A stretch of 64,000 nucleotides of DNA, taken from NCBI GenBank assembly GCA_031291395.1, contig JARLJD010000115.1, positions 846 through 64,845 of the forward strand, in the 5' to 3' direction. This DNA is from Alphaproteobacteria bacterium. Its GTDB lineage: Bacteria; Pseudomonadota; Alphaproteobacteria; UBA9219. The translations under genes were made by a program, and so were the position numbers. Below are positions 18,447-26,440 of this stretch, in pieces. Numbering within the stretch: the stretch's first letter is position 1; the number at the start of each line of letters is the position of its first letter. Below the pieces are notes generated by a model, which had not been told where the DNA came from, made no database searches, and was given only the letters and a program-made list of their open reading frames with translations.

Positions 18447-18599
18447 AAAATCGGTTATGACGCCTCTTGCTTAAAACTTGCTTAAGCGCGGAAGGTTTGG
18501 GGTTACAATTCATGGCAATCAAGACGCATGCAATTCTGTGGATTTTTTTGACAAAATTTGCCATAATGCGGGTATTCTTGTGATTTGAGGCAAAGGCCT

Positions 18600-18854
18600 A
18601 TGACAACTATGAATATATCTCTTCCTGAAACCATGAAATGTTTCGTGGATCATCAGGTAATGGATGGCGGTTACAGCACGTCGAGCGAGTATGTTCGCGA
18701 CTTGATTCGCAAGGATCAAATCCGTCTTGCGCAACAGCATTTAGCGACCCTGATCATGGAGGGGCTGGAATCCGGTGCTGCCCTGCCTGTCGATGATGCT
18801 TATTGGGAAAACAAACGCAATGCGTTGACGCAAAAAGATCAGACCGCCCCATGA
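18600..18854 (+). CDS. parD: ParD-family antitoxin (ribbon-helix-helix)
   Basis: ~84 aa from MTTMNISLPE; the SSEYVRDLIRKDQ motif is typical of ParD (COG3609). Overlaps the downstream toxin start by 4 bp. Confidence 0.7.
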   Translation: MTTMNISLPETMKCFVDHQVMDGGYSTSSEYVRDLIRKDQIRLAQQHLATLIMEGLESGAALPVDDAYWENKRNALTQKDQTAP

Positions 18855-19168
18855 AGCCTGTTCGTATTCGTCCGCGCGCCGACAGAGAAATTGACGCGCT
18901 TGCGGATTATCTCGCGCGCAGCAATGTCAGCGTGGCGTTGCGTTTTCTGGGCTCTGTGCAGGAAGTTTTCGATCTGATCGGCAAACAACCGGGAATTGGC
19001 TCTTTGCGCTATGCCCATTTGCCGATGCTTGAAGGCTTGCGCGTGTGTTCAGTGTCTGGATTTGAAAAGCATCTGGTGTTTTTCATTGAGAGGCACAGTT
19101 ATATTGACGTGATCCGCGTCCTGCACAGCGCGCGCGATCTTCCTGCCGCTCTTGCAGAAGACGAGTAA
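18851..19168 (+). CDS. parE: ParE/RelE-family toxin
   Basis: ~105 aa from MKPVRIRPRADREIDALADYL with HLVFFIERHSYIDVIRVLH: the ParE fold signature. Confidence 0.7.
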   Translation: MKPVRIRPRADREIDALADYLARSNVSVALRFLGSVQEVFDLIGKQPGIGSLRYAHLPMLEGLRVCSVSGFEKHLVFFIERHSYIDVIRVLHSARDLPAALAEDE

Positions 19169-19172
19169 CAAA

Positions 19173-20084
19173 ATGCCCAAACCCCACACTTCCTCCCCCG
19201 TTCACGGCTGGCTAGCACTGGACAAGCCTTTAGGGTTGACGTCGACGCAGGCTTTGGGGCGGGCGCGGCGGCTTTTGGGCGGGAAGAAGGCGGGGCATGG
19301 GGGGACGCTGGATCCGCTGGCGACGGGGGTTTTGCCTTTGGCTTTTGGCGAGGCGACCAAAGTGATTCCCTATGTGATGGACGGCGACAAAGAATATGAA
19401 TTCACGCTGCGCTGGGGCGAGGAGCGGGCGACGGGCGATGCCGAGGGCGAGGTGATCGCGACAAGCGACGCAAGGCCGAACGAGGCGCAAATTCTTGCGG
19501 CAATGCCTGAATTTATTGGCACAATTCAGCAAAAGCCTCCGGCTTTTTCGGCGATTAAGGTGCAGGGCGAACGCGCCTATGACCTTGCCCGCGCGGGGGA
19601 AAAAGTCGACTTGGCGGCGCGCGACGTTCGAATCGATAAGTTTGAACTTATTGACATCATTGACAAAGACAGCGCGAAATTTCGCGTTTCCTGCGGCAAG
19701 GGCATGTATGTGCGTTCGCTGGCACGGGATTTGGCGGAAAAACTGGGGGGCTGCGGTTATGTCGGTGCGCTTCGGCGTACGAAAGTCGGGCCTTTCACGA
19801 TCGAAAATGCCGTTTCGATGGATGAATTGGAGCGTTTGAGTGCTGAAAATGCGGCTTTGACCGCTTTATTGCCCATAAAATCGGCGTTGGGAGCCATTCC
19901 TACCCTGATCTTAACCCCAAATGAGGCCAATACCCTGCGTTTAGGCCAGAGAATTTTGATCCGACCCCAACATGGCACGCTTTTTGAGGCGCCTTTGATC
20001 TTCGCTGAATACGATTGTGTGCCGATAGGTTTGATCGAAGCCAAAGCAGGGGAATTCCGCGTTTTGCGGGGGTTTCATTTCTAA
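19173..20084 (+). CDS. truB: tRNA pseudouridine(55) synthase
   Basis: HGWLALDKPLGLTS...GHGGTLDPLATGVLP with the catalytic Asp motif. ~303 aa. Confidence 0.9.
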   Translation: MPKPHTSSPVHGWLALDKPLGLTSTQALGRARRLLGGKKAGHGGTLDPLATGVLPLAFGEATKVIPYVMDGDKEYEFTLRWGEERATGDAEGEVIATSDARPNEAQILAAMPEFIGTIQQKPPAFSAIKVQGERAYDLARAGEKVDLAARDVRIDKFELIDIIDKDSAKFRVSCGKGMYVRSLARDLAEKLGGCGYVGALRRTKVGPFTIENAVSMDELERLSAENAALTALLPIKSALGAIPTLILTPNEANTLRLGQRILIRPQHGTLFEAPLIFAEYDCVPIGLIEAKAGEFRVLRGFHF

Positions 20085-20272
20085 AAACTGTGACTTTTCA
20101 GCATCTTTAGTTTGGCTTCCCTTTTCTCTCAAATCTCGTCATGCAATCGCATACTTTTGCCGGTTATCATTTCAGTTTTCGTAGAAGCGGTTTATGTCGT
20201 TCTGCAGTATAATCGATTTACAACCGATCCTTAATCAGCCCCTCGCCTTATAGGCGAGGGGCTGATTGGTTG

Positions 20273-21448
20273 TTACAGATGCGGGACACCAACTGTACGG
20301 ACTACAAATTTGTTGGATATTGCTCCGGGAGCGTTGTCGGAAAGAAAGGCCTTGCGCTTATTAGATTTTTCATAAGCAGCCATTTTGGCTTTAAGCGCTG
20401 CTTCCCTTACCTCTTTGTTACCTGTCATATACCTAGGCAATAGATCGGCACCAACCACGATAATATCATCTGATACGGGCGCGTGCTTTACATCAAGGCC
20501 TTGGTTCCGATTTTTTCTCAACGCATTGATCAATTCCTGAGGTGACATATACACCGCGTTGCCGAGGCTTTTGCTAAGTTTTTTAGAGCCGTCCGCAAAC
20601 AAAAGCGGAACATGAAGAAAATCCCCCCTGTATTGGTCTATTCCCAACCCAGCTGCTAAATGCTCCATCAACGAAGTTCGATTGGTAGGAAAATGATCAA
20701 TTCCTATGACCCATAGATCGGGTTGTTCAGCCGCTAATCTGGCAGCCTGCAGCATTCGGAATTGCATCGCCCATGAAAGATTTTTAGCCTTTTGACTAAA
20801 ATGATAATTCCCCATGAATTTGTGCCAGCCGTCAATTAATAGGCCCTCTGAGGACTTTTTCAGCGTTGCATCTGTAACGGGGGCGTGGCAGTCGGGGCAT
20901 AAGGGCCAGACAAAACCTTTTTTGCCTTGAATAGGAGTTTGTGTGAAAAACCCAATAACGCGTCCAATGCCTGCAGAATGATGCATTGCGCTAAGAACGG
21001 TTTTTTCAAATTCCGGTGTACCAACGAGTTCGGAGGCGCGACGAAAATCAAGCTTCACGTAAGGGAACCGAGCGCCGATCGTACCGCGAACAACTCCCTC
21101 GATGACGGGTTGCCAAAAGTCGGCAAGACTGCCTTTATGACCATTGGGGGCGGGCATGAATTGGAACGTCGTGCTTCCCGGATACATATTTGCGGCATTG
21201 GCAGATTCACGGGTTCCATCCGCGCCGACATACTTCACAGGTTCAATATCATTAAGCCATATTTGAAGCCTAAATTCTGGCTTTTCACGATTGATGTCTT
21301 CATAGCGCTCACATAGCAGATAGGGGTAGGCTATTACAGCCGCCATGTTGCCCGCATGCAAGCCGTAAGGTCTGATACCAACGCCTATTTTTTCATTTCC
21401 CTTTGCCTCGCTGACCCAATAGGTCAAACCTCCCCATCCGATGTGATT
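20273..21448 (-). CDS. class-I aminoacyl-tRNA-synthetase-like protein (LysRS-I/TrpRS-like catalytic domain, no anticodon-binding domain)
   Basis: HIGH-region variant GIRPYGLHAGN (compare LysRS-I P-S-G-x-x-H-x-G-N and TrpRS GAQPSGELTIGN). KMSKS variant KLSKSLGN. ~391 aa from MNHIGWGG, where LysRS-I is ~520 aa. Low-GC islet. Confidence 0.55.
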   Translation of the reverse strand, partial: NHIGWGGLTYWVSEAKGNEKIGVGIRPYGLHAGNMAAVIAYPYLLCERYEDINREKPEFRLQIWLNDIEPVKYVGADGTRESANAANMYPGSTTFQFMPAPNGHKGSLADFWQPVIEGVVRGTIGARFPYVKLDFRRASELVGTPEFEKTVLSAMHHSAGIGRVIGFFTQTPIQGKKGFVWPLCPDCHAPVTDATLKKSSEGLLIDGWHKFMGNYHFSQKAKNLSWAMQFRMLQAARLAAEQPDLWVIGIDHFPTNRTSLMEHLAAGLGIDQYRGDFLHVPLLFADGSKKLSKSLGNAVYMSPQELINALRKNRNQGLDVKHAPVSDDIIVVGADLLPRYMTGNKEVREAALKAKMAAYEKSNKRKAFLSDNAPGAISNKFVVRTVGVPHL

Positions 21449-21753
21449 CATTTTTACAATCTCTATTTTAAATATTAATCTTTGAAATACCCTATAATTT
21501 AAGGGGCTATTTGCGTCGGTCTTATATCTTGCATTTTTGCAATTTGCCAATTCTTTTTTACTTTCATGGCCGTAAGAGTTTTGTTTGTAAGCTCCTTACA
21601 CATAGCTTTGTGCGATGGTTTGAGGGATAGAAAGATTCCCAAACTTTCCCCTTCCCATCTCCCCTGCTTCCCGCTAAAAAAAACTGCAAGGCGACAGGCT
21701 CGTTTGCGTTCACCGGATGCCTTGCTCCGGAACGTTTTAACCGTCGTGATCCT

Positions 21754-23046
21754 ATGAAAAACGTTGTCGTTGTGGGTGCCCAGTGGGGCGATGAGGGCAA
21801 GGGGAAAATCGTCGATTGGCTGTCGTTTCGCGCGGATATCGTCGTGCGCTTTCAAGGCGGGCATAATGCGGGGCATACGCTTGTTATCGACGGCGTCACC
21901 TATAAACTGAATCTGCTGCCTTCGGGCATCGTGCGCGAGGGCAAGCTGTCGGCCATCGGCAACGGCGTGGTCATCGATCCGTGGCATCTGATTAAAGAGA
22001 TCGACGCGATCCGCGAAAAGGGCGTGCATGTCGCGCCCGACAATCTGGTCATAGCGGAAAACTGCCCGCTTATTCTTCCCGTCCACGGCGCGTTGGACCG
22101 TGCGCGCGAGGCCGCGCGGGGCGACGCCAAAATCGGCACGACGGGGCGTGGCATCGGCCCCGCCTATGAAGACAAAGTCGCGCGCCGCGCTATACGCATG
22201 TGCGATCTGGCCGAGCCGGAGATTTTGCGCGCCAAGCTGGAATTCATGCTGTTGCATCACAACGCCTTGCTGCGCGGCTTTGGGGCGGAGGAATTCGATC
22301 TTGAAAGGCTCTATCAAGAGATTATGATTATCGCCCCCAAAATCCTGCCCTATGTCGGCGTGGTCTGGGAAATTTTGGAAACGGCGCGCAAAGCGGGAAA
22401 ATTGATGTTGTTCGAGGGCGCGCAGGGCGCGATGCTGGACATCGACCACGGCACCTATCCTTTCGTTACCTCCAGCAACACGGTCGCGGCCAACGCGGCG
22501 ACAGGCTCTGGCGTGGGATCGAAAACCGTCGGGCGCATCGTCGGCATTTGCAAAGCCTATACCACGCGCGTGGGCGCTGGCCCCTTCCCGACCGAGGATA
22601 CAAGCGAGGACGGCGAAACGCTGGGTACGCGCGGCAAGGAATTCGGTACCGTCACGGGGCGTCGGCGGCGTTGCGGCTGGCTGGACGCCGTCGCGGTACG
22701 TCAAGCGGTCAAGACAGGCGGCATCGACGGGATCGCGTTGACCAAGCTCGATATTCTCGACGCGTTCAAGGAATTGAAAATCTGCCGCGCCTATAAACTG
22801 GGCGACAAGGTCATCGACTATCTGCCCGCAGGGCAACAGGCGCAAGCCGCGGTCGAGCCGATCTATGACCTCTGCGAAGGCTGGAATTGCAGCACCCGCG
22901 GCCTGCGCAGCTGGGCCGACCTTCCCGCGCAAGCCCTCAAATACATCCGCCGCGTCGAAGAACTGATTGAAGCGCCCGTGATTTTGCTTTCGACCAGCCC
23001 CGAACGCGACGACACGATTTTGATGAAAGACCCGTTCGCGGATTGA
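21754..23046 (+). CDS. purA: adenylosuccinate synthetase
   Basis: 430 aa beginning [21 protein letters not shown], with GHNAGHT: canonical PurA. Confidence 0.95.
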
Positions 23047-25468: not shown

Positions 25469-26440
25469 ATGGGTTCAGTTTCAAAAAAGAAGCCTTGGTT
25501 TCTGAAAAGCGGCTTTCGCTCATCATGGGATATCGCGGCGCGAGAGGCGACGAATTGGCTGATGCCGTACGAAGCCCTTCAAATAGCGAGAATGGCGCAT
25601 GAGATCTGGGAGCAAAACCCGAATTCGCGCGTTTTTTCCTTGGGACAAAGTCCAGCGTGGATTGTTAAAGCCTTGGAAAAAGAGGCGGCACTTAAAAAGT
25701 TAGATTATAAAACGGGATATATCCCATTTTCTGGCAGTTTCTTTCTTCCTGCGGATGTGCTTGAGCAAAATAAGGACTTGTATTGTTATTCATCATGGGA
25801 TGGGCGAACCAACCTTTGCGAAAGAATAAACCGTCATAGGATGGATCCCTATAGAAAAGTTTTAGAAAAAATTGGCATGAGCCCGGAATCAATTATTGAT
25901 CATTTTACGAAAAACAATGCCACGACAACCATTACCGAAATTATGGGTCAATCCGGTGGTGGCGCAGCCTCTTTCCTGTACGTCCTTTTTTCCTGGGCTA
26001 AAGACGACGGCGCCGAGGCATCGCTGCGTGAAGCCGTGAATGTCCGGCTTTATAACAACAGTCAACTCGATTTGCCTTTCAGCCTCAGAATTGAAGGCTT
26101 CGATCCCATCCCATGTAATTTTCATCCGATTGATTCAGATTTGCGGGATACGCTTATGAATTGTCGCGACAATGTCAGGATTGTTCCTTACTATCCCTCG
26201 GAAAAGTGGCTGAAAGAACCGGGATCGCCTGAAGGTGATCCTCGCATTTTGCAAAATACGGAGGAGGTGCTGGGGGAAGCCGTTGTCATTACTAATTTTG
26301 CTCCCAATCTATATGATAAATGGCGAATGTACGGTCGCGCGGCTGTAAAAAAATTTCTGCCCCGCGACGCGCCAAAAGCTGTTTCTTCAAAACGTTCAAC
26401 GCTCGCAAGTGTAATCGGCGAAACCCCGTTCGTACGTTAG
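25469..26440 (+). CDS. hypothetical protein (low-GC orphan)
   Basis: 323 aa; surrounding region 25060-26450 is clearly lower GC. No recognised motif. Confidence 0.45.
   Translation: MGSVSKKKPWFLKSGFRSSWDIAAREATNWLMPYEALQIARMAHEIWEQNPNSRVFSLGQSPAWIVKALEKEAALKKLDYKTGYIPFSGSFFLPADVLEQNKDLYCYSSWDGRTNLCERINRHRMDPYRKVLEKIGMSPESIIDHFTKNNATTTITEIMGQSGGGAASFLYVLFSWAKDDGAEASLREAVNVRLYNNSQLDLPFSLRIEGFDPIPCNFHPIDSDLRDTLMNCRDNVRIVPYYPSEKWLKEPGSPEGDPRILQNTEEVLGEAVVITNFAPNLYDKWRMYGRAAVKKFLPRDAPKAVSSKRSTLASVIGETPFVR

Follow-up and report, generated by a model that had tools for sequence, protein, structure and literature searches.

A stand-alone relative of class-I lysyl-tRNA synthetase in an alphaproteobacterial genome: a candidate amino-acid ligase outside translation

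What does a bacterium do with a relative of lysyl-tRNA synthetase (LysRS) that appears to have no means of reading an anticodon? This question is raised by a minus-strand gene in a 64,000-nucleotide stretch of an alphaproteobacterial genome of the UBA9219 lineage (assembly GCA_031291395.1, contig JARLJD010000115.1, positions 846 to 64,845; the whole stretch is called the window here, and positions are counted from its first letter). A first-pass annotation, made from the sequence alone, had described the gene as a truncated class-I synthetase-like paralogue that might modify tRNA or ligate amino acids rather than serve as a housekeeping enzyme. The comparisons reported here indicate that its product, the window protein, is a stand-alone and apparently catalytically competent descendant of the class-I LysRS catalytic domain and not the LysRS of the cell. 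As to function, we lean towards an ATP-dependent amino-acid ligase, derived from class-I LysRS (LysRS-I), that would act on a non-tRNA acceptor.

The catalytic domain and its ancestry

Predicted structure and family profiles both point to LysRS-I as the parent. The AlphaFold model built from 46 sequences has a predicted local distance difference test score (pLDDT) of 95.2 and a predicted template-modelling score of 0.93, with all five models in agreement. An exhaustive comparison of this model with 48,161 chains of the PDB places the LysRS-I structure 1IRX first (Z 19.6, 300 residues aligned, root-mean-square deviation 5.8), ahead of BshC (Z 14.5), CysRS (12.6), GluRS (about 12), GluQRS (11.7) and MshC (10.9), and Foldseek matches the model to 1IRX with E 4e-11. 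A model from nine sequences, with a pLDDT of 79.8 and unstable individual models, gives the same structural ranking. The first-pass annotation had likened the protein to TrpRS as well as to LysRS-I; the second likeness stands, and TrpRS, with a Z of about 10 or less, adds little to it.

At the level of sequence, the window protein by itself scores 20 bits against the LysRS-I family PF01921 of Pfam (E 3.7e-4, residues 54-333), under the cut-off of 27, and has no match to TIGR00467 (cut-off 147.55 bits) at E up to 10. A single-sequence search of the PDB returned nothing, and a shallow nine-sequence profile returned chance-level matches only. The other family members score 25-65 bits against PF01921, most of them above the cut-off, and the 46-sequence family profile matches 1IRX with E 7.5e-7 over chain residues 26-289; these scores and this profile match together make the link to LysRS-I firm. 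Specifically, the profile alignment pairs HVGN, DDYD, GKDH and KMSGSKGN of 1IRX with the HAGN, ND-E, G-DH and KMSKS-type motifs of the family, and the HIGH and KMSKS variants that had first drawn attention to the gene thereby fall into register with the class-I catalytic core.

The residues concerned hardly vary. In a family alignment of 81 rows (10 from a solitary clade, 5 intermediate and 66 embedded in gene clusters), R27, P28, G30, H32, G34, N35 and N67 are invariant, D68, E70 and K294 are each kept in 80 of the 81 rows, and S140, G250, D252 and H253 are among the invariant or near-invariant core residues. The machinery with which a class-I synthetase binds ATP is intact here and subject to selection. 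The position of Glu41 of 1IRX, a residue that Terada et al. in 2002 are said to have found in contact with the epsilon-amino group of lysine, is Ala38 in the window protein; the family has A, S, T or P there, with no group showing an acidic majority, and the genome's own LysRS has Asp. The HIGH-region correspondences are taken from the family-profile alignment to 1IRX, and the counterpart of Tyr268 is uncertain (L279 or H280).

The window protein, at 392 residues, compares with 523 in 1IRX and 571 in the genome's own LysRS, and it ends about 95 residues past the KMSKS loop. In the structural overlay, model residues up to 368 reach chain residue 427 of the 523 of 1IRX. Length, alignment and model alike indicate that the anticodon-binding domain is absent, as had been proposed. 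A canonical class-I LysRS is, moreover, encoded on a different contig (G000:C182) of the genome, which is 99% complete: this 571-residue protein scores 335 bits against PF01921 and aligns to residues 4-519 of 1IRX, anticodon-binding domain included, with E 6e-86. BLASTP between the two proteins finds nothing significant (best E 2.0). The earlier view that the gene is not a housekeeping synthetase is thereby borne out, and annotating it as a lysine--tRNA ligase would be inappropriate.

Relatives, gene clusters and a solitary clade

A word-indexed search of 5.8 billion proteins found eight relatives, seven of full length (395-403 aa, 49-55% identity) and one a fragment of 229 aa. A length-blind HMMER profile search of 1.84 billion representatives widened this to 85 relatives at E up to 1e-3, with 35 at E up to 1e-30. 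Most of these are 310-350 aa long and match profile positions 1 to about 320 only, so that most lack the C-terminal tail of the window protein; a C-terminal anticodon domain was seen in none of the 85, and canonical LysRS-I was not among them. In the longer forms (524-652 aa) it is the C-terminal part that matches the ligase profile, or the match is partial. One of them, P0034 (652 aa), has an N-terminal APH kinase domain fused to a C-terminal LysRS-I-like ligase; its kinase part matches the APH kinases of the gene clusters described below at E 1e-57, and the fusion is, as read from its sequence, a Rosetta-stone link between APH kinase and ligase activities. P0066 carries a hydrolase domain on the C-terminal side of the ligase, Pfam finds nothing in the N-terminal extension of P0030, and that of P0042 looks like low-complexity mistranslation. 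In the ESM Atlas, several clusters of 316-412-aa proteins carry PF01921 alone, under automatic names only. A single-protein metagenome scan found no relative, and an alignment-based scan then found some. None of three family members submitted to the PADLOC defence models gave a match, which leaves a known defence system unsupported.

The neighbourhoods of the distant relatives offer the main functional clue. Genome and metagenome scans yielded 104 loci, 97 of them non-redundant; 14 were dropped when the simple caller of open reading frames (ORFs) did not find the homologue (short contigs or interrupted frames), and three close-clade loci were set aside. The tally covers the 79 loci at which one or more other ORFs lie no further than 6 kb away, and its counts are lower bounds, since many contigs are short. 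Most frequent is a protein of about 369 aa resembling cytosylglucuronate (CGA) synthase, whose gene usually overlaps the 3' end of the homologue (53 of the 79 loci). It is followed by an ABC-F ATPase (45), a GT4 glycosyltransferase and an APH-family kinase (42 each), a DegT-type aminotransferase (41), a protein of about 136 aa resembling nucleoside-2-deoxyribosyltransferase (NDT; 36 loci, PF15891 at 27.5 bits against a cut-off of 30), an S-adenosylmethionine (SAM) methyltransferase (35), a radical SAM/SPASM enzyme (17) and a Ham1-like pyrophosphatase (12). The 369-aa partner belongs to no Pfam family; all four representatives tested match TIGR04467 (cytosylglucuronate synthase, BlsD/MilC type) at E 1e-10 to 5e-6, with 26-41 bits against a cut-off of 300. 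The radical SAM partner has TIGR04466 (BlsE-type cytosylglucuronate decarboxylase) as its third-best match (E 9e-21, below cut-off), and the best NCBIfam matches of the GT4 partners are BshA and MshA, both below cut-off.

A typical order is found in L015:3522-11589, where NDT-like, DegT, SAM methyltransferase, GT4, APH kinase, LysRS-I-like ligase and CGA-synthase-like genes follow one another, often with ABC-F near; L011, L014, L016, L020, L027 and many others are similar, and the genomes include those of the candidate phyla radiation along with others. This conserved cluster looks like an undescribed peptidyl-nucleoside-type (cytosyl-hexose) pathway. In the parts of the source drawn on here, the mildiomycin pathway comprises the nucleotide hydrolase MilB, the CGA synthase MilC, the DegT aminotransferase MilD, MilG, which decarboxylates cytosylglucuronate, and an enzyme that adds an amino acid (PMC11784345); the cluster resembles it component by component, via remote similarities.

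The close relatives of the window protein stand apart from these clusters. A quick IQ-TREE phylogeny was built from the first 335 residues of 82 rows, with the genome's own LysRS as outgroup and support given as the Shimodaira-Hasegawa-like approximate likelihood-ratio test; the rows excluded ORFs shorter than 300 aa or longer than 420 aa as well as exact duplicates. Nine rows form the window's clade (support 97), which joins P0014 at support 99; together with P0014 and five intermediates it makes up a 15-row clade (support 100), nested in turn in a clade of 50 rows (support 96) that is otherwise made up of cluster-embedded members. On this tree the solitary clade of the window is a derived branch within a family that is mostly cluster-embedded. 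Its four available contexts all differ: truB and purA on either side in the window, ccmH/G/F (L008), an amino-acid permease (L009) and two genes of the inositol-monophosphatase (IMPase) family (L035). In this last case (L035:1649-4705) the homologue, 49% identical, has one such gene on each side, and an IMPase-family gene also adjoins a distant homologue in L024; a functional link to the homologues is possible.

The clade differs from the rest of the family in its C-terminus, its metal site and its pocket. The helical tail is modelled with a pLDDT of 94-98 up to about residue 380, its end is conserved as GVPH-L/I/V to the last residues across the clade, and it is modestly basic, with a net charge of +1 to +7 in seven of eight evaluable members. 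Residues 316-392 have no match in Pfam, the PDB or the partner-cluster proteins, and an Atlas part-search with the tail stayed at chance level (score 0.80, TM < 0.5). The four-cysteine zinc ribbon (CPxC...CxxC) is complete in all 66 cluster-embedded rows, and its second cysteine pair is found in none of the ten rows of the window's clade, the window protein having H210 and G214. Positions close to the LysRS-I pocket that read W227/Q230/F231/R232/F278/H280 in the solitary clade are Y/Y/H/K/T-or-M/F-or-Y elsewhere. A switch to another substrate would be in keeping with both the altered pocket and the acquired tail.

The gene is rare, horizontally acquired, patchily distributed and compositionally foreign. 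It is present in 2 of 20 congeners, in none of 40 other relatives and, at E up to 1e-10, in none of a further 400 genomes drawn from the class. In congener G008 the copy is split over two contig ends, L033 (G008:C52) and L034 (G008:C93), and a TAG interrupts its frame near residue 230. A pseudogene, disrupted by something at which the assembly breaks, is the probable explanation; the alternative is an assembly artefact, the genomes being metagenome-assembled. With a GC content of 47.5%, and 45.5% at third codon positions (GC3), the gene is one of the 23 lowest in GC and one of the 17 lowest in GC3 among 857 ORFs of at least 300 aa (mean GC 56.8%, standard deviation 3.6; mean GC3 65.7%), and the 1.67-kb islet around it falls in the bottom 0.9% of 4210 equal-size windows by GC. 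The first-pass description of a lone gene in a low-GC segment between truB (19152-20084) and purA (21754-23046) is thus accurate. In the congeners listed, truB and purA lie on separate contigs or far apart, the closest pair being about 5 kb from each other (G003), which puts the gene at a rearranged junction; the truB-X-purA junction (19152-23046) is a lineage-specific rearrangement point. Neither direct repeats flanking the islet nor marks of a mobile element were found around it.

Table 1. Features of the LysRS-I-like gene and its islet, in window coordinates.
Feature	Position	Strand	Remarks
LysRS-I-like protein, coding sequence	20273..21451	minus	392 aa + stop; ATG 21449-21451, TAA 20273-20275; translation checked
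In-frame upstream extension to TTG, 33 codons	21452..21550	minus	AT-rich leader; found in none of the homologues
HIGH-region motif RPYGLHAGN, residues 27-35	21347..21373	minus	aligns with HVGN of 1IRX
NDIE motif, residues 67-70	21242..21253	minus	counterpart of LysRS-I DDYD
CPDC, residues 185-188	20888..20899	minus	first half of the family's four-cysteine zinc ribbon kept; second cysteine pair lost
GIDH, residues 250-253	20693..20704	minus	counterpart of LysRS-I GKDH
KMSKS-type loop KKLSKSLGN, residues 290-298	20558..20584	minus	aligns with KMSGSKGN of 1IRX
Helical tail, 75 residues, ends GVPHL	20276..20500	minus	conserved in close clade only
Hairpin, perfect 16-bp arms	20233..20267	minus	6 nucleotides past the stop; single occurrence in the genome
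Low-GC islet, 45.8% GC	20085..21753		sole gene is the LysRS-I-like gene; between truB and purA

The ORF itself spans 20273..21550, or 425 aa when counted from TTG, and the product is taken as 392 aa because the N-termini of all eight database relatives coincide with the ATG at 21451; both values sit within the range of about 391-425 aa given initially, and the upstream extension is probably not translated. The hairpin behind the stop codon (Table 1) is a probable transcription terminator by its sequence; a consensus terminator scan did not call it, a T-run being absent, and its membership of a repeat family was rejected, the element being unique in the genome. A consensus promoter scan performed no better than on shuffled sequence and found nothing upstream of the gene on its own strand. 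Rfam gave zero matches in 19000-23000 at E up to 1, so that no T-box or riboswitch is indicated, and neither tRNA nor other RNA elements were found near the gene.

Several further features of the genome may be recorded. Overlapping ORFs for a ParD antitoxin/ParE toxin pair lie directly upstream of truB (18585-19168, plus strand; local GC 48-49%). Another orphan ORF of low GC (about 42-45%), at 25469-26440 on the plus strand, separates typA/bipA from a dnaG-like gene; for its 323-aa product Pfam gives nothing at E up to 0.1. The only APH-family (PF01636) gene of the genome is found at about 63424-64098 of the window on the minus strand (G000:C26:64269-64943), some 43 kb from the LysRS-I-like gene and probably unrelated to it. 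The only full DegT gene lies on another contig in an unrelated low-GC region (G000:C68:16044-20891), beside several of the genome's lowest-GC ORFs (40-45% GC) in what is probably a surface-polysaccharide island.

A putative ligase and its rivals

Taken together, the data are best accommodated, on a balance tilted modestly in its favour, by the amino-acid ligase named at the outset. In a first step, ATP and an amino (or other) acid would form an acyl-adenylate in the manner of MshC and BshC; in a second, the adenylate would acylate an amine or hydroxyl on some acceptor other than tRNA, a small molecule resembling an amino-sugar or amino-nucleoside being the likeliest. The substrate pair of the window's clade is probably other than that of the cluster-embedded relatives, because the clade has left the cluster, altered its pocket, lost the zinc ribbon and gained the helical tail. 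A different or external acceptor would be required, since the genome lacks CGA-synthase-like and NDT-like genes and has its sole full DegT gene in an unrelated region, and the substrate may be taken up from outside. Of the two activities that the first-pass annotation had left side by side, the neighbourhoods of the relatives thus favour ligation over tRNA modification, and neither is proven.

Several points weigh against this reading. No partner gene (CGA-synthase-like, APH, DegT or GT4) adjoins the window gene, and CGA-synthase-like and NDT-like genes are absent from the 99% complete genome by the family models, TIGR04467 and PF15891. Any pathway context has therefore to be taken over from relatives that share 24-30% identity, and the annotations of the partners in those clusters are all far under curated cut-offs (26-41 against 300 bits for TIGR04467). 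The pocket positions of the window protein are unlike those of its cluster-embedded relatives, the basic tail could equally bind RNA, and the root of the tree is uncertain because the single outgroup branch is very long (6.1). The broken copy in one congener, finally, makes the gene appear dispensable.

A more specific joint reading, to which we assign a small probability, is that the family comprises the first class-I LysRS-derived enzymes outside translation, that cluster members aminoacylate the amino-sugar of a cytosyl-hexose nucleoside, and that the window's clade is a captured copy inactivating an external compound. The last element is motivated by a precedent: in the sections consulted of the relevant study, leucyl-demethylblasticidin S is 20-fold less active, which means that aminoacylation blunts a nucleoside antibiotic (PMC5572114). 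If this joint reading were true, candidate-phyla-radiation bacteria and others would make an undescribed ribosome-targeting peptidyl-nucleoside, with ABC-F and APH providing self-protection, and a free-living proteobacterium would be shielded from the nucleoside antibiotics of its neighbours by amino-acid addition. Genomes of the candidate phyla radiation are usually held to be poor in natural-product clusters. The family context suggests that an undescribed pathway, apparently of the peptidyl-nucleoside type, is widespread among them.

The main rival to the ligase is a tRNA modifier resembling GluQRS (YadB), in which the amino acid would be attached to a modified base or another tRNA position and the basic tail would hold the RNA. 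We regard it as unlikely, and it retains its rank because the tail is modestly basic (net positive in seven of eight evaluable clade members). GluQRS has the same architecture, a catalytic domain with no anticodon-binding domain, and is a structural neighbour (4a91, Z 11.7); part of the tail overlays the post-KMSKS region of 1IRX (model to residue 368, chain to 427); and the window gene is solitary, as gluQ often is. However, the clade is nested in a family tied to small-molecule pathway genes, the window protein scores 11.3 bits (E 0.14) on NF004313, whose cut-off is 380, the surroundings of the gene yielded neither a tRNA nor another RNA element, and absence from all 400 other genomes sampled from the class is a degree of rarity unlike that of a conserved tRNA modification.

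An improbable alternative is that the gene, transferred as part of a pathway, is decaying or has already lost its function and survives in a few genomes by chance. This would account for an orphan in a genome with no pathway partners, the loss of the zinc ribbon, the split G008 copy with its in-frame stop, the presence in just 2 of 20 congeners and the missing upstream promoter in the consensus scan of its strand. Against this, the 392-codon frame is intact and followed by its own terminator hairpin, and ten clade members, at 49-59% identity, retain every catalytic motif and conserve the tail down to GVPH-L/I/V. The intact frame, the kept motifs and the conserved tail indicate purifying selection.

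The chances are slimmer still for a protein modifier, which would aminoacylate a polypeptide at a side chain or at one end, perhaps its own C-terminus, in the way that the class-II LysRS paralogue PoxA acts on EF-P. We know of no precedent for protein modification by a class-I synthetase. The conserved extreme C-terminus GVPHL would otherwise have no explanation, yet no conserved neighbour presents itself as a target, the four close-clade contexts all differing, and the relatives lie in small-molecule clusters. PoxA does give, in the portion of the review used here, a precedent for a synthetase paralogue acting on a protein (PMC9437257). A second, auxiliary LysRS that charges tRNA-Lys with no anticodon-binding domain is very improbable: LysRS-I is indeed the nearest fold and family, but the domain is absent, Ala38 replaces Glu41 in a family that has no acidic majority there, BLASTP detects no similarity to the resident LysRS, PF01921 is below cut-off and TIGR00467 has no match.

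Comparison with known systems

The putative ligase shares with LysRS-I (1IRX; PF01921, TIGR00467) the Rossmann core and the aligned H-x-G-N, acidic D/N-D-x-D/E, G-x-D-H and KMSKS-loop elements. In contrast to LysRS-I, it is about 130-180 residues shorter, has no anticodon-binding domain, stays below the family cut-offs, carries Ala at the Glu41 position, shows no BLASTP similarity to the LysRS of its own genome and is encoded by a rare, horizontally acquired gene.

Closer in presumed chemistry are two enzymes of low-molecular-weight thiol synthesis. MshC, the Cys:GlcN-Ins ligase of mycothiol synthesis and a paralogue of CysRS, uses the class-I scaffold to acylate an amino-sugar through an aminoacyl-adenylate; it matches the model at Z 10.9, and distant relatives of the window gene lie beside GT4 (42 of the 79 loci). 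Unlike the window protein, however, MshC derives from CysRS rather than LysRS-I, no sequence link past the class-I fold was detected, and the window gene has no pathway neighbours. BshC, the putative cysteine ligase of bacillithiol synthesis (PDB 4WBD), is a Rossmann-type, synthetase-like enzyme likewise assigned to amino-acid addition on an amino-sugar and is the second-best structural match (Z 14.5, 266 residues aligned), but it is 8% identical and, at 540 aa, has a different C-terminal part. Overall, MshC and BshC show 8-12% identity to the window model, and the sequence-profile searches of the PDB recovered neither of them.

GluQRS/YadB, the glutamyl-queuosine tRNA-Asp synthetase, is comparable as a class-I paralogue consisting of a catalytic domain only (about 300 aa; Z 11.7). 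It differs in being derived from GluRS and widely conserved in Proteobacteria, whereas the relatives of the window gene are tied to sugar/nucleoside pathway genes and not to tRNA genes.

Further parallels come from a 2022 review of synthetase duplications, as far as the portion drawn on here extends. SbzA, an IleRS-like enzyme that adds Ile onto altemicidin, and other synthetase-like enzymes of natural-product pathways are class-I-derived, cluster-embedded and acylate small molecules, from a different parent synthetase (PMC9437257). LysRS paralogues in non-canonical roles are also described there, namely PoxA/GenX, LysU and LysX; these are all class-II-derived and of unrelated fold, and this portion of the review contains no LysRS-I-derived example (PMC9437257). 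Searches of open-access papers and bioRxiv turned up no account of a shortened relative of class-I LysRS or of such clusters in Saccharibacteria; subscription journals may differ. Synthetase paralogues freed from tRNA recognition have repeatedly given rise to unexpected chemistry, as MshC, GluQRS, PoxA and SbzA illustrate, and to these the present family may add a new enzyme that forms amides or esters at the expense of ATP.

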